Both the position numbers and the translations under genes were made by a program. The notes under the pieces are model-generated. The model saw nothing but the letters and a program-made list of their open reading frames with translations. It ran no database searches and had not been told where the DNA came from. A stretch of 64,000 nt of DNA. Origin: Oscillospiraceae bacterium. GTDB taxonomy: Bacteria; Bacillota; Clostridia; Oscillospirales; Oscillospiraceae. The stretch lies in assembly GCA_902761635.1 (NCBI GenBank), contig CACWLG010000005.1, positions 24,819-88,818 on the forward strand, read 5' to 3'. Below, piece after piece: positions 22,444-62,242 of the stretch (position 1 is its first letter; each line of letters opens with the position of its first letter).

Positions 22444-25400
22444 ATGCGAAGCTTTGAAAAGTTAAAGGAATATCTGCAGGGGACTGCCGCGCGCAGGGCA
22501 ATTGCGTCTGTGCTGGTCGCGGCAGAGTGCCTTTCTGTTGTCGCGGTGGGACTGCCTGCCGCATATGCCGTGGAGGCAGCGCCGCTTGAGGCGGTCGAAC
22601 TGACAGACCGGACGACCAATTCGGCGCCTGCTGCTGAAGTCCCGGAGAGCGGGCAGGAGGAGACGGTGACACCGGCTGAGGCCGCCAGACTCGGTGAAGA
22701 GGCGGCGGCGAGCTTTGCAAACGAGGCCGAGCGCGCGGCGGAGGAAGCCGAACAGGCAGCCGACGAGACTGCCCGGATGCTCGGTGAGGAGCTCACGGAC
22801 GCGGTTCTGGAAGCCGCGCGGCAAAGCGCCGGGCAGGCGGAAGACGCAGCCGGCCGTGCGCGGGACGCAGCCGAAAGGGCGGCAGACGAGGCAGACTGGG
22901 CAGCGCAGGCGGTCGAGATCGCGACGCAGGAAGCGGAGCGGACAGCCGCCGAGGCACAGGAAGCCGCCGAGGAGGCAGAGCATGCAGCCCGGACGGCGGA
23001 GGAGATCGCCGAGGCGGCGCGTATGCTGGAAGAGGCAGCCATGGCCGCGCAGGAGCGCGACAGAGAGCGCAATGGAAACGAACAGCTCCAGGAAGCGGCA
23101 GAGGAGAGATCGGCAAAGCGGGAAGAGTCGAAGGATAAGACTGCCCTGTCAACGGCGACGCCGTCACCGGCCGGTGACCTTGCTGTGGTCCCCGGCAAGA
23201 CCGAACAGCAGGAAAACGCAGAGAATCAGAAAACGGATTCCGAGCAGCCCGCAGCGGCTGAGGAGATTCCGGCAGGCGTGACGCAGGATGCCGCAGAGGC
23301 CGGCGCGACGGCGGAGGTCAAGGCCGAAGAGGCCGCGCGGGCGCGGGAATACGCCACAGCCATGGCCGAAGAATATGACAGCACGTATGCTGCCGCCTTG
23401 AATGCAAGCGAACAGGCAAACCGCGCCTTTGCCGCGTCGGACCGAGCAGCCCGGGCGGCTGCGCGCGCTTGGGCAGCTGTCGCAGAGGCGGAGGAGCGCT
23501 TTGCGCAGATGCCGGGCGATGAGCAGGCAGATCAGCCTGACCGCCCGGAACCTGCGGAATACACAGATGCGGCGGAGAATAACGACACAGCGGAGAATAA
23601 CGACACAGCGGAGAACACGGACCATATGTACTATACCGACAGCGCCGTCACCGTATGGGGCGAGGTGCCTGCCGGGGTCTATGTCCAGGCCGAGAATGTC
23701 TCCGCCCGCTATCAGGATTTTGATCCGAACGCCGCAGATACCCTCACGGCAGGCGAGACCAATGCCTTCCTCAGCGACGGGAGCACTGCGGTGAAGAGCC
23801 GCCGCGTCCTGGCGGCGTATGATATCTCCCTGTCTCTGAACGGGGAGGAGTATCAGCCCGAGGCGGGCAGCCCCCTGACTGTCTACATTGCGGACCCCAG
23901 GATCCGGGAGGGTCTTGACCTCGAAGTCTGGCACATTCATGACGACGGTCTCGTCGAGCCCATCACGGATTTCACTGTGGAGGGCGGCGCTGTTCGCTTC
24001 GAGGCAGCGAGCTTCTCGGTGTATCTCGTGTGCGCTTATACCGTGGACTTCCACTGGGGCGATTATACCTACAGCATCCAGGGCGAAAGCGAGATTACCC
24101 TCAGCGAGCTCTTTGAGAAGCTCGGCGTGACAGAGATCACAGCCGCCGATGTGACCGGCGTCAGCTTCACCAATCCCGACTGCATAGGAATTGAGCAGCT
24201 TGACTCTGACTGGCTGCTTCGGTCTCGTGCGCCCTTTAACACCGAGGAGGCGCTGACTCTCACGCTGAATAACGGCGAGACAGTAGAGATCAAAGTCACG
24301 GACGCGGACGATGATGAGCCGGACGACCAGACCACAGAAAGCTACACGGTCACCTGGAAAAATGAGGACGGAACCGTCCTGGAGACAGACGAGAACGTGA
24401 CGGCAGACACGATCCCGAGCTATGACGGGGAGACACCGACAAAGACGGATGAGGAGCACAAGTGGTATTTTGCCGGCTGGATGCCGGAGATTGAAGCTGC
24501 TGCAGAGAACAGGGAATACACTGCGCAGTTTGAGCAGTGCAGGGAACTGACCATCACTGCGGACAGCAGCAGCAAGATTTTTGACAATACAGAGCTGACA
24601 AAAGAGAGCTATACGCTGACAGGAGAATTGGACGAGGGCGACAGCCTTGTGTCTGTGACTATCACGGGAACGCAGACAGAGGTCGGAAGCGCGGAAAACA
24701 TCCCGAGCGATGCGCAGCTTGTCAATGCCGAGGGCGAGGATGTCACGGGGCACTATGACATCACCTACGTCAACGGCACACTGGAGGTCAGAGAGAGAGC
24801 AATCACCATCACTGCAGGCAGCGCCGAAAAAGTCTATGACGGTGAAGCGCTGGAGGAAAAAAACTGGACGAGTACGGAGCTGGCAAACGGCGATACGATC
24901 ACTTCTGTTACAATTACAGGCTCGCAGACAAAAGCCGGCAGCTCGGATAACGTCCCGAGTAAAGCGGTCATTGTCGACAGTGACGGAAACCCCGTGACGT
25001 TGCCCTATAACATTACCTATGTAAACGGCACACTGACCGTCAATCCGCAAGGCGTCACGCTGAAGGCAAATAGTGCCACGCTGCCCTTCAACAGTGAGGA
25101 ACAGCAAGTAACCGGCTATACCTGCAGCGTGGATGGACTGAGCTTCGAGGGCGTGGAAGCGCGCGGCAAAGGTAAAGATATCAATATTTATGATGTTGAG
25201 TTCACCGGCGTTACCCTGAACGAGACGCGCGATACCACCGGAAACTATATTGTCACCGGCCTGGAAAAAGGCCTGCTGATCATTGTCGAGAATACAGGCG
25301 AGAGCGTGATCCTCCTGGAAAAGGAGCTTTCTGGCTTCAACGGAGACCTTGCAAGCTACACGATTAATGTGAACCCGGAAGGCCGGGTACTGAGCGGCGA

Positions 25401-52772: not shown

Positions 52773-54221
52773 ATGAAAACAAAAAGATTCCTGAGCTGCC
52801 TTGCCGCCCTGTGCCTGACGGGAGCACTCCTGTGGGGGCTGACCTGGCTGACCCAGAAAAAGGACAGTTATGCCAAAAACGCAGAGTTTTTTGAGCAGAA
52901 GGCGGATTACGACGTGTTCTTTGTCGGCTCCAGCCGCCCCATGAACGGTATCTTCCCCATGGAACTGTGGGAGGATCACGGCTTTGTCTCCTATAACTGG
53001 GCCCAGGCGGGGCACCCGCCTCCCGCCTACTATTGGGTCATGCGCCTGGCTCTGGACTATAAGCAGCCGAAGCTCATGGTCATCGACTGCTACGGCATGC
53101 ACTTTGACGCAAAGACTACCGCAGTCTTCGGCCTGATGCACATTTCAATGGACAGCTTTCCCCTCAGCCTCAACAAGATCCGCGCCGTGCGCGACATGCT
53201 GGACGACCCGGCCATGACGGAGGAGTTCAACGAGGGGGAGCGCCGCAGCGCCTTCAACCTCCTGTGGACCTTCCCTGTCTTTCACTCCCGCTGGAGCCAA
53301 CTGACGGCGGAGGACTTTTACCCGCAGAAGAGCCTGACCCGCGGGGCCATCGCAAACAACGAAATCTACGGCGGTGAATTCGTGCCCGATGACAGCGAGA
53401 AGGGCGCGGTCTTCGATACGGTGGGGGTAAAGTATCTGCGCCGTGCCATCGAGGAGTGCCAGAGCCGGGGCATCGAGGTCCTCGTAACCTTTCTGCCGCT
53501 CTATGCCGACGCCCATCAGCAGGCTGCGGCGGAATATGCGGGAAAGATCGCGGCGGAATACGGGGTGGACTATCTCAACTTCTTCGACCTGGATGTGGTG
53601 AACTACCATATCGACTTTGCCGACAGCGCCGGACACCTGAATACTGCGGGCGCGCGGAAGGTGACAGAGTACCTCGGCAATTATATCGCCGGGCGCTATG
53701 GAATCCCCGATCACCGGGGCGAGGAGGCTTATGCCGACTGGGCGCGGGATCATCAGCTCTATACGCAGAAAAAGAATGAGACGCTCCGCACCGAGGAAGA
53801 TCTTTACCGCTATCTCATGCTCCTGGAGCGGGATGCGGTGGATGCGGCCCTCTTTGTCCGGGACACGGAGCTGTTCCGGGACCCGATCGCAGCGGAGTTG
53901 CTTGCGGCCCTCGGCGTTGAAACGGAACAGTGCGGCGCGGAGACAAAGCTCATCCTCATCCGTCACGGCGGGGAGCGCACCGCGGTCCTGAACCGCCTGC
54001 CGAAGCCCGGCGAGAGCCTGGAGACGGCGGCGGGCACGCTCGGCGGCGGGGAGGGTCTGACGCTTGACGGCATGCCTCTTGCCTCACCGACAGAGGAGGG
54101 TGACCTTTGCGCCTGCATTCTGCGCGACGGCGAGCAGATCGACTGCGCGCGCTTTCGCTACACCTTTGATGCCTCACGCGGCGTCGTCAGCCAATACGGC
54201 GTGAGCCGGGAAACCGCATGA
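52773..54221 (+). CDS. Membrane-anchored MBOAT partner protein (PatB/DltD/SGNH-like; function uncertain)
   Basis: 482 aa with an N-terminal TM anchor. FFVGSSRPMNG resembles a GSS catalytic-Ser block. It starts 15 nt after the MBOAT gene. Confidence 0.5.
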   Translation: MKTKRFLSCLAALCLTGALLWGLTWLTQKKDSYAKNAEFFEQKADYDVFFVGSSRPMNGIFPMELWEDHGFVSYNWAQAGHPPPAYYWVMRLALDYKQPKLMVIDCYGMHFDAKTTAVFGLMHISMDSFPLSLNKIRAVRDMLDDPAMTEEFNEGERRSAFNLLWTFPVFHSRWSQLTAEDFYPQKSLTRGAIANNEIYGGEFVPDDSEKGAVFDTVGVKYLRRAIEECQSRGIEVLVTFLPLYADAHQQAAAEYAGKIAAEYGVDYLNFFDLDVVNYHIDFADSAGHLNTAGARKVTEYLGNYIAGRYGIPDHRGEEAYADWARDHQLYTQKKNETLRTEEDLYRYLMLLERDAVDAALFVRDTELFRDPIAAELLAALGVETEQCGAETKLILIRHGGERTAVLNRLPKPGESLETAAGTLGGGEGLTLDGMPLASPTEEGDLCACILRDGEQIDCARFRYTFDASRGVVSQYGVSRETA

Positions 54222-54373: not shown

Positions 54374-54415
54374 AAAGAATAATTTGTTATGACATACAGG
54401 GGGATAGGAAACAGA

Positions 54416-55258
54416 ATGGATTTTCGTCCGCTGTGCCTGGAGGATCGGGCATGGATCACGGAATGCCGGGACATACAGGCAAATCCTTTTACGGCGCTTT
54501 CCTTCCCGTCTCTTTATTCTTGGCGTAATGCCTACGGTTATACCGTCACCGGGGATGAGAACTTCTTCGTGATCCGCAGTGCGCATGACGAGGGCTATTA
54601 CTGCCCCTGCGGAGACCCGGAAAAGTGCAGCGCTTTTCTTGACGGCCTGGAAAGACCGGGCCGGGTTCTGTATCTGACACGCCAGCAGGCCGAGAGCCTG
54701 GCGGGGCGCGGCTGGTCCGTCCGGCACCGGGAGGATCTGAGTGAGTACATTGTCTCCGTTGCGGCCGAGGCGCTTCGGGAGGGGCACATTTCCAAGAGCT
54801 TTCGGGATAAGTGCCGCCGCTTTAAGAAAACCTATGCCTACACGATCAGCGTACCGGGGCCTGAACAGAAGCTGCTCATGCGTCAGATTCTCCGTAAGGT
54901 GCGCCTGGACCCGCGAGAGGCGGTCATGGGTGACATCAGCGTTCTGTCTACGGAGATAGAATACAGCGAACAGCTCGGCCTGCGCACTTACCTGCTGCAG
55001 ACGGAAGGCAAGGGGAATGCCCTGTTCGCCGGCTATGAGAACAAGCCGGACATGTTTACCATGACGATGGTCAAGCACGATCCGACTCTCCCGCCGGAGA
55101 CCACAGCCGTCTGCGTCCATGAGCTGGCACGGCTGCTGGACGGGCAGTACCTGTACATGAATTTGGAAGAGGATCTCGGGCTTGAGGGACTGCGCAGGTC
55201 CAAAATGCTCTACAGTCCTGTGGATCGCCTGGAGGTTTATGAGGCATTCAAAGAGTGA
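54416..55258 (+). CDS. DUF2156-like protein (MprF C-terminal synthase-like, GNAT fold)
   Basis: The start is taken at MDFRPLCLEDRAWI.. . The pattern ..FTALSFPSLYSWRNAYGY..ENFFVIRS resembles the DUF2156 N-terminal region. Assigned by eye only. Confidence 0.5.
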   Translation: MDFRPLCLEDRAWITECRDIQANPFTALSFPSLYSWRNAYGYTVTGDENFFVIRSAHDEGYYCPCGDPEKCSAFLDGLERPGRVLYLTRQQAESLAGRGWSVRHREDLSEYIVSVAAEALREGHISKSFRDKCRRFKKTYAYTISVPGPEQKLLMRQILRKVRLDPREAVMGDISVLSTEIEYSEQLGLRTYLLQTEGKGNALFAGYENKPDMFTMTMVKHDPTLPPETTAVCVHELARLLDGQYLYMNLEEDLGLEGLRRSKMLYSPVDRLEVYEAFKE

Positions 55259-57030
55259 AGAACAATCATTATATCTGCCGCAGAATGTTTTTCCAGGTGC
55301 TGTGGCCTTCTCTGATTTCCGCCGCGGCGCTGTCTGCCGCCAATATGGCGGATGCGGTCGCCCTCGGCAACCGCATGGGGGAGAGCGGCCTTGCGGCAAT
55401 CGGCATCGTGACGCCGCTGTATATGTTATACAACGTGGTGGGCCTTGCCATCTCCACAGGCGGCGGCGTGACGCACAGCGGCCTCACTGCTGAAGGAAAA
55501 GAGGAAGAGGCCCTTGCCCACTTCCGGAGCCTGGGGATCCTGGCACTCTCGGTGGGCGTCCTGTTTGCCGTGCTGGGCAATGTACTGATGGAGCCGATTC
55601 TCCGCCTGCTGGGCGCCGGCAAGGCGCAGCAGGGCATTATGGCTCTGTGTGAACAATACGCGCGGCCTGTCTTTATCAGCGCGCCGGTCTTCATGCTAAA
55701 CTATCTGTTATATGACATTGTGCGCTGTGACAACGGCACGCGGCGCGCGACGCTTGGCTTTTCGGTGGGATGCATTACGGATGTGGCGCTCAACATCCTT
55801 TTCGTGATGCTTCTGGGCTGGGGGCTGCGCGGCTCTGCCTTGGCCACGGTGATCGCCCAGTGTATGAGCGTTTTGATTATGCTGCCGCATTTTTTCAGCG
55901 ACAGCGGCGTCCTGCAGTTCCGGCGGCTTCGCGGCCGGCTTCACGGCGGTGCTGTGCCGGCTCTCGTAGGCCGCTCCGTCAGGATCGGCTTTTCGACCTC
56001 GGCGCGCTATATCTTCCAGTTCCTGTTTCTGATGCAGGGCAACCGTCTACTGCTGAAGGCCGGTGAGCGCAGCATCATCAACGGGGAGGTCTATGTCGCG
56101 GTCTTCGACGTGATTATGAACGTATCCTATCTCGCCCATGGAATTTACCAGGCCTATTCTGATACCATGCAGCCGCTTGCCGCAACCTTCCATGCCGAGC
56201 ATGACGCGGATGATCTGCGTTACCTGCTCAGACTTGCGACCCGCCATGGGCTTGCGGTGGGCATGACAGCGGGCGTGCTGCTGTGCGTGTTCGCAAAGCC
56301 GGTATCGTATATATTCGGCCTCACGGACCCGAAGACGCTGGAGGTCTCCGTGAGGGCGATCCCGATCTTCTGCCTGAGCACGCCCTTTGCCGGCATCACC
56401 ATCATCCTCACGGGCTTCTACCAGTCCACGGGGCAGGTGAAGCTTGCAAGCCTTGCGACAAGCTTTCGCACTCTGGTCTTTCTCCTGCCGCTCACCTTTA
56501 CGGCAGGCCGGTTCTTCCCGCATGAGTTCTGGTGGCTCTTCCTGGCAAGCGAGGCAGGCTCGCTCGCCTCGCTGGTCGTCGCGGCGGGGATCAACGGAAA
56601 GAAGACGAGGCAGCACACAAGGGTACCGGTCGTTACGGCAACCCTGGGTCCGGACAAGCGGGAGTTCGGACCGGTCATGGAGCGGGTCGCGGCTTTCTGC
56701 GAAGAGCAGCAGATCCCCCGGAAGCAGGCCATGCTGATCGAGCAGGCGGTGGAGGAGCTGTGCCTCGTCACCTGGGTGAAGGCCTTCAACGGAGGACCGG
56801 ATGAATACATCTGCCTCACGCTGGCGGCGGAGGAGAACGGAGAGTACGTCCTGTATATCCGCAACAGCGCACCCTACTTCAATCCCCTTACCATGCGCAT
56901 GGACAGGATAAGCGCCGGATCGCAGACAGAACTGAGCGACTCCGCAGGCGTGATGATGATAAAAAATCGGGTGAAGGATCTGCGCTTTCGCAATTATCAG
57001 GGGTTTAACGTGATGACGGTCAGGATCTGA
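55255..57030 (+). CDS. MATE/MOP-family transporter with a C-terminal RsbW-like (HATPase_c_2-like) domain
   Basis: A GTG start overlaps the upstream stop. About 450 aa form a 12-TM MATE core (FFQVLWPSLISAA..). The C-terminal 140 aa or so aligns by eye with the stand-alone RsbW-like protein at 58727-59137. Confidence 0.75.
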   Translation: MKNNHYICRRMFFQVLWPSLISAAALSAANMADAVALGNRMGESGLAAIGIVTPLYMLYNVVGLAISTGGGVTHSGLTAEGKEEEALAHFRSLGILALSVGVLFAVLGNVLMEPILRLLGAGKAQQGIMALCEQYARPVFISAPVFMLNYLLYDIVRCDNGTRRATLGFSVGCITDVALNILFVMLLGWGLRGSALATVIAQCMSVLIMLPHFFSDSGVLQFRRLRGRLHGGAVPALVGRSVRIGFSTSARYIFQFLFLMQGNRLLLKAGERSIINGEVYVAVFDVIMNVSYLAHGIYQAYSDTMQPLAATFHAEHDADDLRYLLRLATRHGLAVGMTAGVLLCVFAKPVSYIFGLTDPKTLEVSVRAIPIFCLSTPFAGITIILTGFYQSTGQVKLASLATSFRTLVFLLPLTFTAGRFFPHEFWWLFLASEAGSLASLVVAAGINGKKTRQHTRVPVVTATLGPDKREFGPVMERVAAFCEEQQIPRKQAMLIEQAVEELCLVTWVKAFNGGPDEYICLTLAAEENGEYVLYIRNSAPYFNPLTMRMDRISAGSQTELSDSAGVMMIKNRVKDLRFRNYQGFNVMTVRI

Positions 57031-57047: not shown

Positions 57048-58730
57048 GTGACATATTTGGAAAAGAAAAAGCAAAGAGTTTCCATGTCTGTCAAGCTGAA
57101 TGCGCTGACAATGGTCATTATTCTGGCCCTGTCCGCTGTTCTGATCATCATTGCCTATGACGTGAACAGCCGGCAGGTGGATACATACTATAAGGCAATG
57201 ACCGCCAATGGCGCCCGCACCGTAGCGTCTTTTCTGGACGGGGATTGGATCGACGGCTTTGTGGACACAATTCAGTCTGAGGAGTATCAGAAGCTGCGCA
57301 CAAAAGCCATCGAAGCAAAGGACGAAGAGATGATCCGGCAGTACCTGGTTCAGAACGGCTGGTATGAGGGCTTTGAAACGGTGCGCGATATGCTCGGGCA
57401 GTACAGGGACAGGCTGGGCGTGGCCTATGTCTATACCGTCACGCTGGAGGGGGAGGACAGCTTTACCATCATCGACCCCGATGAGAATCTGTTCTATATT
57501 GGCACCTTCATCCCGCTCCCGCCGGAGTTTCATGATCTCAAGGAAGGGCAGGCGATCGAGCCTACCGTCTCTGTGACAGATTACGGCTGGCTCTGCTCGG
57601 CCTATGATATCATCCAGACCTCCAAAGGCGGGTATGCCGCCCTTGTGGGGGTGGATATCGACATGACCGAGGTCATGACCGAGCGGGAGGCCTTTCTGAA
57701 GCGGATGATCATCTCCTCGGGCGGTCTGCTCCTCATCTCCATCCTCGCCTCGGTCCTGCTGATGCACAAGGTGGTGGTTGATCCCCTGAAAATGCTCTCT
57801 GACGCGACCAGAGGCTTTACCGAGCACGATCACGGCTTTAAGAAGGAGGATATCATCTCCCTGCCGATCACGGCCAATGATGAGATCGGCGACCTGTATC
57901 AGGTGATCCGGACCATGCAGGGAAAGATCGTCGAGTATCTGGACAATCTCACCAGCGTCACCGCCGAGAAGGAGCGCATCAGCGCGGAGCTGAGCATTGC
58001 CACCCAGATCCAGGCTGACATGCTGCCCCGCATCTTCCCGCCCTTCCCGTCCAGGCATGACTTTGACATCTACGCCACCATGACGCCTGCCAAGGAAGTG
58101 GGCGGCGACTTCTATGATTTCTTCCTGATTGACGATGATCACCTGGGCCTTGTGATGGCGGACGTGTCCGGCAAGGGTGTGCCGGCGGCCCTTTTCATGG
58201 TGATCGCCAAGACCCTCATCAAAAACCGTACGATGATGGGCACCGGCCCTGCCGAGGTGCTGCACCATGTCAATGAGCAGCTTTGCGAGGGAAATGAGGC
58301 GGAGCTGTTTGTGACGGTGTGGCTTGCGATCGTGGAGCTGTCCACGGGCAAGGGCCTTGCCGCCAATGCCGGGCATGAGCACCCTGTCATCCGGCATGCG
58401 GACGGGCAGTATGAGCTGGTGGTATACCGCCATTCGCCGGCAGTGGCGATCATGGAGGGCATGCGCTTTCAGGAGCACAGCTTCGAGCTCAAACCGGGCG
58501 ATTCGATCTTCGTCTATACCGACGGGGTAACGGAGTCCACCAATGCGGACAACGAGCTTTTCGGCACCGACAGATTGCTGGAAGCGCTCAACCGCAATCC
58601 GGACGCATCACCGGCGGAGCTGCTGCCGCAGGTCAAGGCGGCGATCGACAGCTTTGTGGGCGAAGCGCCGCAGTTCGACGACATCACCATGATGTGTATG
58701 CAATATAACGGTGCGGAGGTGAAAACGTGA
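57048..58730 (+). CDS. Membrane sensor PP2C phosphatase (RsbU/SpoIIE family) with an extracytoplasmic domain and HAMP
   Basis: Two TM segments flank a domain of about 190 aa. A HAMP domain (..ANDEIGDLYQVIRTMQ) is followed by the SpoIIE motif GGDFYDFFLIDDDHLGLVMADVSGKGVPAALFM. The start may instead be the TTG at 57057, after AAGAGGTG. Confidence 0.8.
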   Translation: MTYLEKKKQRVSMSVKLNALTMVIILALSAVLIIIAYDVNSRQVDTYYKAMTANGARTVASFLDGDWIDGFVDTIQSEEYQKLRTKAIEAKDEEMIRQYLVQNGWYEGFETVRDMLGQYRDRLGVAYVYTVTLEGEDSFTIIDPDENLFYIGTFIPLPPEFHDLKEGQAIEPTVSVTDYGWLCSAYDIIQTSKGGYAALVGVDIDMTEVMTEREAFLKRMIISSGGLLLISILASVLLMHKVVVDPLKMLSDATRGFTEHDHGFKKEDIISLPITANDEIGDLYQVIRTMQGKIVEYLDNLTSVTAEKERISAELSIATQIQADMLPRIFPPFPSRHDFDIYATMTPAKEVGGDFYDFFLIDDDHLGLVMADVSGKGVPAALFMVIAKTLIKNRTMMGTGPAEVLHHVNEQLCEGNEAELFVTVWLAIVELSTGKGLAANAGHEHPVIRHADGQYELVVYRHSPAVAIMEGMRFQEHSFELKPGDSIFVYTDGVTESTNADNELFGTDRLLEALNRNPDASPAELLPQVKAAIDSFVGEAPQFDDITMMCMQYNGAEVKT

Positions 58731-59137
58731 AGGAAATAACACTGGATGCAAAGCTTGGGAACCTGGATGAGGTCCTTGCCTTTGTGGACAGCCGCCTGGA
58801 GGAGCTGGAGTGCCCCGTGAAGGCGCAGATGCAGATCGACGTAGCGGTGGAGGAGATCTTTGTCAATATCGCAAGCTACGCCTATGAAGGGCAGCCAGGC
58901 AGCGCCACCATCAGGATGGAGATCAGACAGAACCCGAAAAGTGCTGAGATCACTTTTCTCGACCGGGGAATCCCCTACAACCCGGTGGAAAAGGAGGACC
59001 CGGACGTCTCTCTCCCGATAGAGAAGAGAAGGATCGGCGGCCTCGGAATTTATATGGTAAAAAAGAGCATGGACGAAATGCTCTATGAACGCAGGGACGG
59101 ATACAATATTCTGACCATCATCAAAAAAATATCATGA
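58727..59137 (+). CDS. Anti-sigma-factor-type serine kinase (RsbW/SpoIIAB-like)
   Basis: A GTG start follows GGAGGTG and overlaps the upstream stop. Contains ..DVAVEEIFVNIASYAY.. and ..RRIGGLGIYMVKKSMDE (N-box and G-box). Confidence 0.75.
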   Translation: MKEITLDAKLGNLDEVLAFVDSRLEELECPVKAQMQIDVAVEEIFVNIASYAYEGQPGSATIRMEIRQNPKSAEITFLDRGIPYNPVEKEDPDVSLPIEKRRIGGLGIYMVKKSMDEMLYERRDGYNILTIIKKIS

Positions 59138-59156: not shown

Positions 59157-59456
59157 ATGCTGAACATTATCAAGAACCTGGATCATAAGACCCTCACGAT
59201 CGCCCTGGAGGGGCGCCTCGATACCACTACCGCACCGCAGCTTGAAACGGAACTGAAGAGCGACGTTGCCGATGTCACGCTTCTCATCATGGATTTTGAG
59301 AAGCTCGACTACATATCCTCCGCTGGCCTTCGCGTGCTGCTCTCGGCTCAGAAGGTCATGAACAAGCAGGGCACGATGAAGATCATCCACGTCAGCGATG
59401 CCATCAACGATATTTTTGAGGTGACGGGCTTCAGCGATATTCTGAATATCGAATAA
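59157..59456 (+). CDS. STAS-domain anti-sigma-factor antagonist (RsbV/SpoIIAA-like)
   Basis: 99 aa with an AAGGAG SD. DFEKLDYISSAGLRVLL contains the phosphorylatable Ser motif (D.ISSAGL). Confidence 0.85.
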   Translation: MLNIIKNLDHKTLTIALEGRLDTTTAPQLETELKSDVADVTLLIMDFEKLDYISSAGLRVLLSAQKVMNKQGTMKIIHVSDAINDIFEVTGFSDILNIE

Positions 59457-59458
59457 GC

Positions 59459-60259
59459 ATGGCTTCAGAGACCGGAATGAAACTGACAGTGCTGGGCGCA
59501 CGGGGCTCCATGGCCGTCAGCGAAAAGGGGCGGGAGCGCTTTGGCGGCGCCACCTCCTGTTATATGGTGCAGGCCGGTGATGATTGTGTCTTTCTCGACG
59601 CGGGCAGCGGCCTGCTTTCGGCGCCTGTGCGCTTCCCCAAACCGCCGCTGATCCTGCTGAGCCATCTGCATCTGGACCACGTGCTCGGCCTGGGCATGTA
59701 CGCGCGGCTGCTGCTGGAGGGAGAAAAAACCGTGATCTGCGTCCCGGCGGACAATGATGAGGATGCCCGCGCACAGCTCAACAGCCTGTTCTCACCGCCT
59801 TACTGGCCGGTGGCGCTGGAGGAGTACCGGGGAGATGTGGTAATCCGCTGCACCGTCACGCCCATGCAGGTCGGGTCAATCCATGTTGAGAGCATCCCCG
59901 GCAATCATCCCAGCGGCTGCTGCGTATTCAAGCTCAGCTGCGGGGAGAAGTCTCTGGTCTATGCCACCGACTATGAGCATGATGAGGCAAGCTTTGACAG
60001 ACTCACGGAATTTGCCGCAGGGACCGATCTGCTGCTCTATGACGGACAGTACGACGAGGAAGAATATCTGAGAAACAAGGGCTTTGGACATTCCACGCCA
60101 AACAAGGGGATCGAGCTGATGGAGCGCAGCGGGGCAAAGCACCTGCTTCTGGTGCACCACAGCCCCTTTGCCTTGGACACGCAGCTGCTGCTCAGGCAGA
60201 GCCTGATCGGGCGCAGCAATGTCAGCTTTGCACGGGAAGGGGAGGTGTTGAGCATATGA
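59459..60259 (+). CDS. MBL-fold metallo-hydrolase
   Basis: 266 aa containing the HxHxDH motif (SHLHLDHVLG). It starts 2 nt after the STAS gene stop. Confidence 0.75.
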   Translation: MASETGMKLTVLGARGSMAVSEKGRERFGGATSCYMVQAGDDCVFLDAGSGLLSAPVRFPKPPLILLSHLHLDHVLGLGMYARLLLEGEKTVICVPADNDEDARAQLNSLFSPPYWPVALEEYRGDVVIRCTVTPMQVGSIHVESIPGNHPSGCCVFKLSCGEKSLVYATDYEHDEASFDRLTEFAAGTDLLLYDGQYDEEEYLRNKGFGHSTPNKGIELMERSGAKHLLLVHHSPFALDTQLLLRQSLIGRSNVSFAREGEVLSI

Positions 60260-61026
60260 GCGTGAATCCGGAAGAGGAAATCAGAACGCTGCAGGAGGAA
60301 AACGAAGCGCTGCACCAGACCCTTCGGGAGAGGGAAGAGTTTATCCACCACACCTTCGGACGCTATCTCACCGATGAGGTCCTGGAAGAGATCCTGTCGG
60401 AGAAGGGCAAGTTCCGTATCGGGGGCGAGCGGCGCGTTGTGTCGATGCTCTTTGCCGATTTGCGTGGGTCCACAGCCCTCTCCGAGGAGATGGATCCGGC
60501 TGATTTTATCCGTATGCTCAATCACTTTTTCGGGGAGCTGATCGAGATCATCAACGCCTGGCAGGGGAATATCCTGGATTTTGTGGGTGATGAGATCGTG
60601 GTCGTCTTCGGCGCTCCGCGGCAGAGCACCTATACCTCACGCGACGCCGCGGGCTGCGCGGTCGCCATGCAGCGGCGCATGACTTTCGTCAACGAGTGGA
60701 ACCGAACGCAGGGCTATCCTGAGATCTCCATGGGGATCGGACTTCACACAGGGGAGGCCATCCTCGGCAATATCGGCTCGGAGACGCGCACCAAATATGA
60801 CATGATCGGCCGCAACGTCAATCTGGCCTCCCGCGTGCAGAGCTATACCGGCGGCGGGCAGATCCTGGCGACCGAGGAGCTGGTGGAGGCGGCAGGCGAT
60901 CAGGTGCTGATCAATGAGAGCGGCTGCATCTGGGTCGAGCCCAAGGGCATCCAGGGCAAAATCAAGCTCTACGATATTATCGGCTTTGGGAAGCAGCGGA
61001 TACCGGAGGTCGCAGAAAATGACTGA
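60256..61026 (+). CDS. Class III nucleotidyl cyclase (CHD domain) with a short coiled-coil N-terminus
   Basis: VVSMLFADLRGSTALSE, DFVGDEIVVVFGAP, GLHTGEAILGNIG and YDMIGRNVNLASRVQ are class III motifs. The start overlaps the MBL stop (ATGA). Confidence 0.85.
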   Translation: MSVNPEEEIRTLQEENEALHQTLREREEFIHHTFGRYLTDEVLEEILSEKGKFRIGGERRVVSMLFADLRGSTALSEEMDPADFIRMLNHFFGELIEIINAWQGNILDFVGDEIVVVFGAPRQSTYTSRDAAGCAVAMQRRMTFVNEWNRTQGYPEISMGIGLHTGEAILGNIGSETRTKYDMIGRNVNLASRVQSYTGGGQILATEELVEAAGDQVLINESGCIWVEPKGIQGKIKLYDIIGFGKQRIPEVAEND

Positions 61027-62242
61027 CAGAAATTTGCGCATTTCCCAGGCAATCTGGCAGATCACGCAGGAGCTGCGGAACGCCGAGACGCTGGATGACG
61101 CTATCTCGGCGAGCCTTGAGATCGTCATCGACACGCTTGACAGTGAGGCCGGGTCAATCTGGCTGCTGGACAAGGGAACCAACCGTCTGTATACCATCTT
61201 TAACCATGGGCCGGCGGACATCAGCGGCATCACCATCGAAAACGGCCAGGGCATTGCGGGCGTAGTGACCATGAGCGGAGAAGCCGTGCTCAATCCGGAC
61301 ATTGAAAAGGACGAGCACTTCAACCCCGGCGTGGATGAGGAGTCGGGCTTCAAAACCAAAAGCCTGATCTGTGTCCCGCTCAAGGCGCCCAATGGGATCA
61401 TCGGCTGTATCGAGATCCTTAACCGACGGGACGGCGGCCTCTACGATCAGGAGGATCTGACCCTCTGTGAGACGATGGCCTCGCTTGCTGCCGTTGCCAT
61501 GGAGGAAAAAGGCTTCTTTTTTAAACCGACCGAGGATAAGGAAATCCTGATTTCTCTGCGCAATGTCACCAAGGACTATCCCTCCGGCGATTCGATGCTG
61601 CATGTGCTGCGCGGCATCAATCTTGACATCTACAAAAATGAATTTCTGGTTGTCCTGGGGGAATCCGGCTGCGGCAAATCCACGATGGTGAATGTGATCG
61701 CCGGCATGGACTCTCTCACCGGCGGCCAGCTGATCATCAACGGGAAGGATTTTTCCCATCCCAGCGACAAGGAGCTCACACGCTACCGGCGCGACTACCT
61801 GGGCTTCGTCTTTCAGTCCTATAATCTGATGCCGAATCTCACGGCGCAGGAGAACGTACAGTTTATTGCAGAGATCGCACCGAACCCCATGTCCGCGGAG
61901 GAGGCCATTGCCAAGGTCGGCCTCACGGACCGGGCCGACAACTATCCCTCAGCCCTCTCTGGCGGTCAGCAGCAGCGCGTGGCCATCGCTCGCGCCGTCG
62001 TCAAGCGGCCGCAGATCATCTTTGCCGATGAGCCCACCGCAGCGCTGGACTATCAGACCAGCATTGAGGTCCTGTCGGTTTTCGAGGAGATCAAAAAGGA
62101 CATCGGCACCACCATCATGATGATTACCCACAACCCCGAGATCGCCAAGATGGCCGACCGTGTCATCAGACTTCGGGACGGGAAAGTTTCCACCATCAAA
62201 ATCAATTTGCACCCGCTCAGCGCAGCAGAGTTGAAATGGTAA
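61019..62242 (+). CDS. GAF domain fused to an ABC transporter ATP-binding domain (MacB/FtsE-type)
   Basis: The ATG at 61019 overlaps the end of the cyclase gene. The GAF domain of about 170 aa (..GQGIAGVV..DEHFNPGVDEESGFKTKSLICVPL..) is followed by Walker A GESGCGKST, the signature LSGGQQQR and Walker B IIFADEPT. Confidence 0.85.
   Translation: MTDRNLRISQAIWQITQELRNAETLDDAISASLEIVIDTLDSEAGSIWLLDKGTNRLYTIFNHGPADISGITIENGQGIAGVVTMSGEAVLNPDIEKDEHFNPGVDEESGFKTKSLICVPLKAPNGIIGCIEILNRRDGGLYDQEDLTLCETMASLAAVAMEEKGFFFKPTEDKEILISLRNVTKDYPSGDSMLHVLRGINLDIYKNEFLVVLGESGCGKSTMVNVIAGMDSLTGGQLIINGKDFSHPSDKELTRYRRDYLGFVFQSYNLMPNLTAQENVQFIAEIAPNPMSAEEAIAKVGLTDRADNYPSALSGGQQQRVAIARAVVKRPQIIFADEPTAALDYQTSIEVLSVFEEIKKDIGTTIMMITHNPEIAKMADRVIRLRDGKVSTIKINLHPLSAAELKW

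Follow-up and report, generated by a model that had tools for sequence, protein, structure and literature searches.

The 64,000-nucleotide stretch of DNA analyzed here (the window; contig CACWLG010000005.1 of an Oscillospiraceae bacterium, positions 24,819–88,818) encodes a MATE-family transporter that ends in a domain with the fold of the bacterial kinases RsbW and SpoIIAB. The peptide quoted in an earlier note on this sequence is located in the same gene, a single continuous reading frame of 591 amino acids (aa) on the + strand (55255–57030 of the window). This gene, hereafter MATE-tail, belongs to a cassette whose members all lie on one strand and are separated by 4-bp overlaps or by gaps of no more than 20 bp; in particular, the stop codon of the upstream DUF2156 gene overlaps the MATE start by 4 bp. 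The cassette comprises the following features.

54389–55258, + strand: DUF2156/LPG_synthase_C-like protein, 289 aa (Pfam PF09924, E 1.7e-13; PDB 2hqy, E 6e-15).
55255–56619, + strand: MATE exporter core, residues 1–455, with 12 transmembrane helices (Pfam MatE, DinF-BH match, AlphaFold2 (AF2) model).
56620–57030, + strand: pseudokinase tail of the RsbW/SpoIIAB fold, residues 456–591 plus the stop codon (Pfam, BLASTP, profile–profile comparison, AF2 model and fold match).
57048–58730, + strand: membrane-anchored PP2C (SpoIIE-type) phosphatase, 560 aa (Pfam SpoIIE, E 3e-49; HAMP, weak, E 0.04).
58727–59137, + strand: stand-alone RsbW-like serine kinase, 136 aa (Pfam HATPase_c_2, E 2.7e-22).
59157–59456, + strand: single-domain STAS protein of the anti-sigma-antagonist type, 99 aa (Pfam STAS, E 3.8e-14).

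The exporter core and its RsbW-like tail

The core matched Pfam MatE in two stretches (E 2e-23; 83 bits against a cut-off of 24.9) and fell slightly under the cut-off of NCBIfam TIGR00797 (144.2 vs 147.4 bits). By sequence, its nearest solved relatives are DinF-BH (4lz6, E 3e-23) and PfMATE (E 6e-14). The full-length AF2 model, with a mean predicted local distance difference test score (pLDDT) of 87 and a predicted template modeling score (pTM) of 0.88, contains 12 long helices, and Foldseek matched it to PfMATE, DinF-BH and VcmN at target-based template modeling scores (TMt) of 0.83–0.87 over ~445–535 aligned columns, the value for outward-facing PfMATE being 0.87. These results bear out the 12-helix MATE core described in the earlier note. 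Asp33 of transmembrane helix 1 (TM1; 55351–55353) is invariant in all 34 family members compared and aligns with the TM1 aspartate of DinF-BH; in DinF-type members of the MATE family, the acidic residue of TM1 serves cation coupling. Judged from its sequence and model, the core appears to be a functional exporter of the DinF type that is coupled to a cation. None of the solved MATE structures matched by Foldseek carries an extra cytosolic domain, the targets having ~405–510 residues, except for one MurJ entry of 602 residues.

In MATE-tail, by comparison, the core is followed by a tail formed by the last 136 residues of the protein. Pfam HATPase_c_2 (PF13581) matched residues 469–589 with an E-value of 5.5e-6 and 26.9 bits, 0.5 bit under the gathering cut-off of 27.4. 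BLASTP aligned the tail with the neighboring 136-aa RsbW-like protein over 120 residues at 23% identity (E 1e-8), and a profile–profile comparison (hhalign) of 22 family tails with 13 cluster kinases returned a probability of 98.5% (E 2e-15, 127 columns). Searched against the PDB, the single tail sequence yielded a chance match only and the family profile only SpoIIAB at E ~0.3, so that the fold assignment was settled by fold comparison and not by PDB sequence searches. Specifically, an AF2 model of the tail alone (pLDDT 86.6) matched SpoIIAB best (1tid, TM-score 0.76, E 1.5e-7), followed by UsfX, RsbW and SiaB, and all of the top 20 fold matches belong to these four proteins. The earlier note had aligned the last ~140 residues by eye with the stand-alone RsbW-like protein and had suggested profile searches of residues ~450–591 for the GHKL/RsbW fold; both the alignment and the fold hold. 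Its description of the tail as paralogous to its neighbor stands as regards distant homology and fails as regards close kinship within the locus: tails share 19.3% identity with the kinase of their own locus and 18.5% with kinases of other loci, and this near-equality indicates that the split between tail and kinase is ancient. A recent duplication of the neighboring kinase as the origin of the tail was rejected on the same figures.

In the full-length model, TM12 comprises the helix at residues 427–454 and the first strand of the tail begins at residue 459, leaving a tether of ~4 residues. The model thus shows the tail rigidly attached to TM12 through a short link.

The three ATP-binding motifs survive in the tail only as remnants, given here against the corresponding motifs of the neighboring kinase.

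56752–56769, + strand: N-box remnant EELCLV (kinase E-E-I-F-V-N, tail E500-E501-L-C-L-V505); E500 and E501 are invariant, and the Mg-binding Asn is replaced by Val505.
56860–56886, + strand: G1-box remnant RNSAPYFNP (kinase D-R-G, tail N537-S-A539); Asp is replaced by Asn537 and Gly by Ala539, and R536, F542 and P544 are invariant.
56938–56955, + strand: G2-box remnant DSAGVM, aligned with kinase GGLGIY (kinase G-G-L-G, tail D-S-A-G565); G565 alone is kept.

The window kinase has all three motifs intact (N-box EEIFVN, G1 DRGIP, G2 IGGLGI), and the same motif states were obtained for the tail whether it was aligned to SpoIIAB or to this kinase. The degenerate ATP lid reported in the earlier note, with GGLGI replaced by SAGVM, is real in substance. 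Its register was one residue off, GGLGI aligning with DSAGV, and the degeneracy was understated: besides G2, the N-box (Val505) and G1 (N537-S-A539) are gone too.

We extended the motif comparison to 88 tails and 73 kinase domains drawn from the same loci. Of the 88 tails, 85 lack the N-box Asn and have V, A, I, T or L instead; almost every cluster kinase has it. G2 has lost its first two glycines in the tails, whereas N, D-x-G and GGxG are retained by the cluster kinases with hardly an exception. When the window sequence is added to the alignment of 172 family members, 163 of the 173 rows have Ala in place of the G1 glycine, and the first G1 position is Asp or Asn across the tail family. The residues that are invariant among the tails are E500, E501, R536, F542, P544, G565 and N585. 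Compared with a 94% identical homolog, the tail has a ratio of nonsynonymous to synonymous substitution rates (dN/dS) of 0.25 and the core one of 0.11; at the sequence level, the tail is under purifying selection and not decaying. We therefore describe it as a conserved pseudokinase in which the Mg-ATP-binding residues are gone, the motif loss suggesting that catalysis has been lost as well, in keeping with the pseudo-kinase-like RsbW-fold domain that had been suggested.

Conservation of the cassette and other carriers of the tail

A full-length search recovered more than 120 protein clusters at 31–94% identity, nearly all of 575–605 aa. Nearly all of these clusters carry precomputed PF01554 and PF13581 matches, that is, the MatE plus HATPase_c_2 architecture for which a database check had been proposed, and members are named 'MATE family efflux transporter' in the database. 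The closest relative of the window protein (94%) comes from a rumen metagenome-assembled genome labelled Ruminococcaceae RUG13571. When the tail by itself was run exhaustively with HMMER against 1.84 billion representatives, only 178 relatives emerged at E <= 1e-3, almost all of them located C-terminally on ~580-aa proteins or on fragments ending there; this small number and uniform position set the tail apart as a subfamily of its own that has diverged far. A word-indexed search with the same query returned only four short fragments. A scan of one genome per species placed confirmed relatives in at least 141 species-level genomes, all Clostridia, with hosts in the Christensenellales, Oscillospiraceae and Lachnospiraceae; isolates are among the carriers (Coprococcus catus, Enterocloster lavalensis and Oscillibacter sp. 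MSJ-31).

This distribution also bears on whether the protein could be an artefact, a frameshift or assembly error that merged two genes, one for a MATE protein and one for a small kinase. Architecture and length are the same throughout the >120 clusters, from independent assemblies and isolate genomes, and relatives occur in the 141 species-level genomes; the frame is uninterrupted, and the tail starts four residues after TM12 in a confident model and has a dN/dS of 0.25. No point in favor of an artefact was found. The distribution refutes it, we regard it as virtually impossible, and the fusion proposed in the earlier note is genuine.

We surveyed the surroundings of the gene in 80 genome loci with our own profiles, flank-dependent counts being taken over subsets of 70, 71 and 44 loci. 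Of the 70 loci with enough flank, 68 have a PP2C gene no more than 1.2 kb downstream of MATE-tail, and a DUF2156 gene lies directly upstream in 43 of 71. In 38 of the 80 loci the PP2C carries the kinase as a C-terminal fusion, and in 27 the kinase is free. STAS is present in 49 of the 80 loci and abuts the MATE start, directly upstream of it, in 16. Among the 44 loci with full flanks, 36 have the kinase and 29 have STAS. Independent gene calls and Pfam annotation recovered the same cassette in loci at 58%, 49%, 42%, 33% and 32% identity. The conserved cassette therefore reads (DUF2156 or formyltransferase)–MATE-pseudokinase–membrane PP2C–intact kinase–STAS, and the genomic link between MATE-tail and partner-switch genes that the earlier note had pointed to is a general one, with PP2C nearly constant and kinase and STAS usually nearby.

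Read from its sequence, the window PP2C has two predicted transmembrane segments around an extracytoplasmic region of ~180 residues, followed by the weak HAMP match. Its best NCBIfam match is SiaA, at 78 bits against an equivalog cut-off of 700. The STAS protein exceeds the cut-off of NCBIfam TIGR00377 (67.6 vs 53.45) and has a weak MlaB match as well. The motif Y-x-S-S-A-G-L-R-V-L-L is invariant in all 50 cluster STAS proteins, and Ser55 (59319–59321) is the predicted phospho-acceptor, an assignment that we presume by analogy with D57-S58-S59-G60-L61 of SpoIIAA. Fusions of STAS with APH (PF01636 phosphotransferase), ~400 aa long, adjoin the single-domain STAS in several cassettes; two were identified by domain scanning (L048 3788–5038; L073 6034–7224) and four by size and position only (L051 3731–4957; L058 3627–4976; L062 556–1770; L078 10839–12035).

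A promoter and terminator scan gave counts within chance. Genes for GGDEF or EAL proteins occur in only 2–3 loci, and cyclase, GGDEF and EAL neighbors are not conserved. EAL or GGDEF+EAL proteins were observed at the downstream end of the cassette (L009 7186–9108; L090 12055–13434; L013 13261–14634; L015 12797–14326); they recall SiaD of the SiaABCD system and are too sporadic for a core part. In the window itself, an MBL-fold hydrolase, a class III nucleotidyl cyclase (PF00211) and a fusion of GAF with an ABC ATPase are packed after STAS (59459–62242, + strand) and may form an ABC transporter regulated by cyclic nucleoside monophosphates. We rejected them as conserved parts of the cassette, as elsewhere they occur only in the 94% homolog (L010).

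The enzyme next to the exporter takes two forms. The DUF2156 protein is a homolog of tRNA-dependent aminoacyl transferases (PF09924, 2hqy). About 25 loci without DUF2156, roughly a third, instead encode a ~275-aa protein between the MATE-tail and PP2C genes (L047 8724–9581; L055 8708–9538; L071 8711–9568; L087 8692–9564; L091 9764–10585). Both of the ~275-aa proteins that were scanned against Pfam contain Formyl_trans_N, with an apparent N-H-D catalytic triad by eye, and in these formyltransferase-type loci STAS abuts the MATE start. In addition, an 871-aa protein (P0137) fuses LPG_synthase_C, MatE and a dead tail. DUF2156 domains are tRNA-dependent lipid aminoacyl transferases in MprF and in fungal ErdS/ErgS (PMC7334510, PMC8913301), and the adjacency of DUF2156 and MATE, together with the P0137 fusion, recalls the synthase–flippase pair of MprF. 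As a lead only, the cargo may be an aminoacylated or formylated amine-containing product that is exported or flipped.

The tail domain also occurs outside the MATE family. The same motif-dead domain terminates a fused SBP–permease–ATPase ABC transporter (L051 11058–14474, + strand), an ABC ATPase (L071 5415–6491, + strand) and an AMP-binding (adenylating) enzyme (L028 2059–4131, − strand). In all three, the tail has an 'EE[IL]C' motif and lacks both the N-box Asn and G2. A search for further ABC-plus-tail proteins yielded only two fragments. The presence of one dead domain on a MATE protein, on ABC transporters and on an adenylating enzyme suggests a portable module that is found near the same signaling genes. 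A second, paralogous MATE plus HATPase_c_2 gene was noticed in L039 (4263–6089), L052 (3–1481), L053 (2–1483) and possibly L071 (545–2242). The second-copy tails of L039, L052 and L053 keep the N-box Asn and the G1 D-x-G and lack G2, an intermediate degree of degeneration; that of L071 is not among the Asn-keeping tails.

Proposed control of transport by a partner switch

We propose that the cassette is a partner switch with the transporter as its output, received through the built-in pseudokinase, and that STAS docks on the tail. We judge this reading to be evenly poised between right and wrong. The membrane PP2C would sense an extracytoplasmic cue and dephosphorylate STAS-P at Ser55, and the intact kinase would re-phosphorylate STAS. 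Unphosphorylated STAS would dock on the vestigial nucleotide-pocket face of the tail, which would hold it because the tail is presumably unable to phosphorylate and release it. As the tail is joined directly to TM12, docking might bias the rocker-switch cycle of the transporter through this link and so turn export on or off. The exported substance would be the product of the adjacent amine-modifying enzyme, and control could run in either direction.

Several observations are consistent with this proposal. The tail is the only conserved candidate output in the cassette, and its occurrence on ABC transporters and an adenylating enzyme would be expected of a portable receiver for a diffusible STAS protein. 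There is a precedent for the docking step, as kinase-dead UsfX binds the STAS protein RsfB (8ih8, among the fold matches of the tail). In Mycobacterium smegmatis, 'binder' and 'kinase-only' RsbW paralogs are separate proteins (PMC10950880). SiaABCD is a partner switch whose output is post-translational and not a sigma factor (bioRxiv 10.1101/674879, PMC7647112). A wider version of the proposal is advanced more tentatively, as possible and somewhat short of probable: phospho-regulated STAS may gate membrane transport directly, at the post-translational level, via dead RsbW-fold receivers on MATE proteins and, occasionally, on ABC transporters or an adenylating enzyme, which would be a kind of partner-switch output not described before. 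Its commonest form, with the aminoacyl-transferase homolog, would amount to a split analog of MprF under signal control, with an aminoacylated lipid or metabolite as the substance exported or flipped.

Other observations weigh against docking of STAS on a dead tail. STAS has no copy within 7 kb in 15 of the 44 full-flank loci; a sensitive search of STAS-less loci found nothing even at E <= 10, indicating that STAS is encoded elsewhere or absent there. The most constant partner of MATE-tail is PP2C, often kinase-fused, and not STAS. The G1 Asp is retained in about half of the family, which leaves room for residual nucleotide binding, and the Pfam score of the window tail itself is marginally below the gathering threshold (26.9 vs 27.4). 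Finally, a 721-aa protein (P0268) fuses MatE, a degenerate tail and an intact kinase domain very like the window kinase, an arrangement that fits pairing of the tail with the kinase equally well.

In such a pairing, the tail would be a dimerization partner of the intact kinase, free or PP2C-fused, and would hold the kinase on the transporter. The transporter would then take the role of the 'sigma factor', and dephosphorylated STAS would pull the kinase off, releasing or engaging the transporter. Anti-sigma kinases with this fold work in dimeric form, the P0268 fusion joins MatE, dead tail and intact kinase naturally, and the kinase is nearby more often than STAS (36 vs 29 of the 44 full-flank loci). 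The RsbW1–RsbW3 heterodimer of M. smegmatis (PMC10950880) points the same way. So does a weak correlation between tail and kinase distances across loci (r = 0.375), while the permutation p of 0.0005 in the tail–kinase comparison is accounted for by lineage and composition and does not demonstrate co-evolution. P0268, however, is a single cluster representative, known as a protein sequence. In the 16 loci in which STAS abuts the MATE gene, the kinase is PP2C-fused, and L076 and L077 have PP2C and STAS with no kinase within 7 kb. Moreover, the invariant residues of the tail are the vestigial active-site motifs, which, from our reading of 1th8-type complexes, we take to be the STAS docking site on SpoIIAB. 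On balance, we consider pairing of the tail with the kinase rather unlikely, although it is the strongest of the alternatives.

The tail might also act independently of the switch, as an ATP/ADP sensor or as a homodimerizer that sets the oligomeric state or energy dependence of the exporter, with the signaling genes acting elsewhere. In favor of this, nucleotide binding is ancestral to GHKL domains, the G1 Asp is kept in about half of the family, E500 and E501 are invariant, and a third of the loci have no STAS gene close by. Against these stand the loss of the Mg-coordinating Asn in 85 of 88 tails and of the ATP-lid glycines, and the adjacency of PP2C in 68 of 70 loci at 31–94% identity, which is hard to explain without a functional link. 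The cassette, in addition, contains no other conserved candidate output. We consider an independent tail very unlikely.

The fold matches raise one further possibility: like UsfX, the tail might be an anti-sigma factor without kinase activity, tethered to the membrane, that sequesters the product of a distant sigma factor gene. Transcription would then be the output, with the transporter serving as sensor or anchor. Sigma factors of the SigF/SigB type occur in Clostridia, and the top fold matches of the tail are anti-sigma factors, including the non-kinase UsfX in complex with a sigma factor (8jzt) and with a STAS partner (8ih8). No sigma-70 family gene, however, was found in the six Pfam-annotated loci (32–58% identity) or next to the window cluster. 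The constant neighbors are enzymes and a transporter and not transcription regulators, and the same domain is present on ABC transporters and an adenylating enzyme. An anti-sigma role therefore appears extremely unlikely, and we retain docking of STAS on the tail as the preferred reading.

Related systems and neighboring genes

The cassette has the same three parts as the SpoIIE/SpoIIAB/SpoIIAA and RsbU/RsbW/RsbV switches of Bacillus (a PP2C, an intact kinase and a STAS protein with a conserved serine), and its tail shares the fold of SpoIIAB (TM-score 0.76). Unlike the Bacillus switches, it lacks a sigma gene, its phosphatase has a HAMP-like linker and is a putative sensor in the membrane, and a second, dead RsbW-fold domain lies within a 12-helix exporter. 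SiaABCD of Pseudomonas aeruginosa consists of the PP2C SiaA, the kinase SiaB, the switch protein SiaC and the diguanylate cyclase SiaD. The likeness lies in the window PP2C, for which SiaA is the best NCBIfam match, and in SiaB (6kko), which is among the fold matches of the tail. The two systems differ in that the PP2C match reaches 78 bits against the equivalog cut-off of 700, and in that SiaC binds the cyclase directly, whereas here a transporter with its own kinase-like receiver is proposed. The mycobacterial proteins UsfX/RsbW1, RsbW2 and RsbW3 provide a non-phosphorylating RsbW homolog that binds STAS, a division between binder and kinase-only paralogs, and heterodimers. They are soluble, stand-alone proteins that control SigF, whereas here the dead paralog is carried on a transporter and no sigma factor is linked.

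Transporters are likewise combined with STAS or anti-sigma components in SLC26/SulP proteins, with their C-terminal STAS domain, and in MlaB–MlaF, as is generally known (review PMC8256260). Those systems carry STAS or bind it via an ATPase; MATE-tail is the mirror image, carrying the STAS-binding kinase fold. DinF-BH and PfMATE share the 12-helix MATE fold and the TM1 Asp with the window core, and the solved MATE matches are without a cytosolic domain. As in MprF, an LPG_synthase_C domain is coupled to a translocator (adjacent in 43 of 71 loci, fused in P0137). Unlike in MprF, the translocator comes after the synthase domain and is a MATE protein rather than the MprF flippase domain, an order opposite to that of MprF, and a formyltransferase takes the place of DUF2156 in ~25 loci.

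Full-text literature searches, which left most subscription journals outside their coverage, returned no paper on a MatE plus HATPase_c_2 protein or on a partner switch directed at a MATE transporter, and the earlier note's impression that the fusion is uncharacterized agrees with this. What is new here is the proposed pseudokinase receiver built into a transporter, together with the conserved cassette; the families of all parts and the switch logic were already known. To our knowledge, partner switches are textbook regulators of sigma factors, with few non-sigma outputs (SiaD, FlgM/HsbD and a glycosyltransferase in Anabaena), and the regulation of MATE exporters is generally taken to be transcriptional alone. 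If the proposal is true, partner-switch logic can switch transport directly, and GHKL-type pseudokinase domains serve as portable receivers in bacteria. The cassette also offers a handle on an uncharacterized enzyme–exporter pair (DUF2156 or formyltransferase with MATE) that many Clostridia of the gut and rumen possess, and the existence of cultured carriers makes genetics possible.

Two further genes of the window were noted upstream of the cassette. A 482-aa protein (52773–54221, + strand) has an N-terminal hydrophobic segment; its only domain match is a weak one to GDSL/SGNH (E 0.04), and NCBIfam returned nothing for it. In the other annotated loci, this gene is not seen ahead of the cassette. 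A single open reading frame of 6854 aa (22345–42909, + strand) contains MBG_2 (three stretches), SpaA prealbumin-like and DUF7601 domains and Chlam_PMP repeats, and looks like a giant surface or adhesin-like protein.

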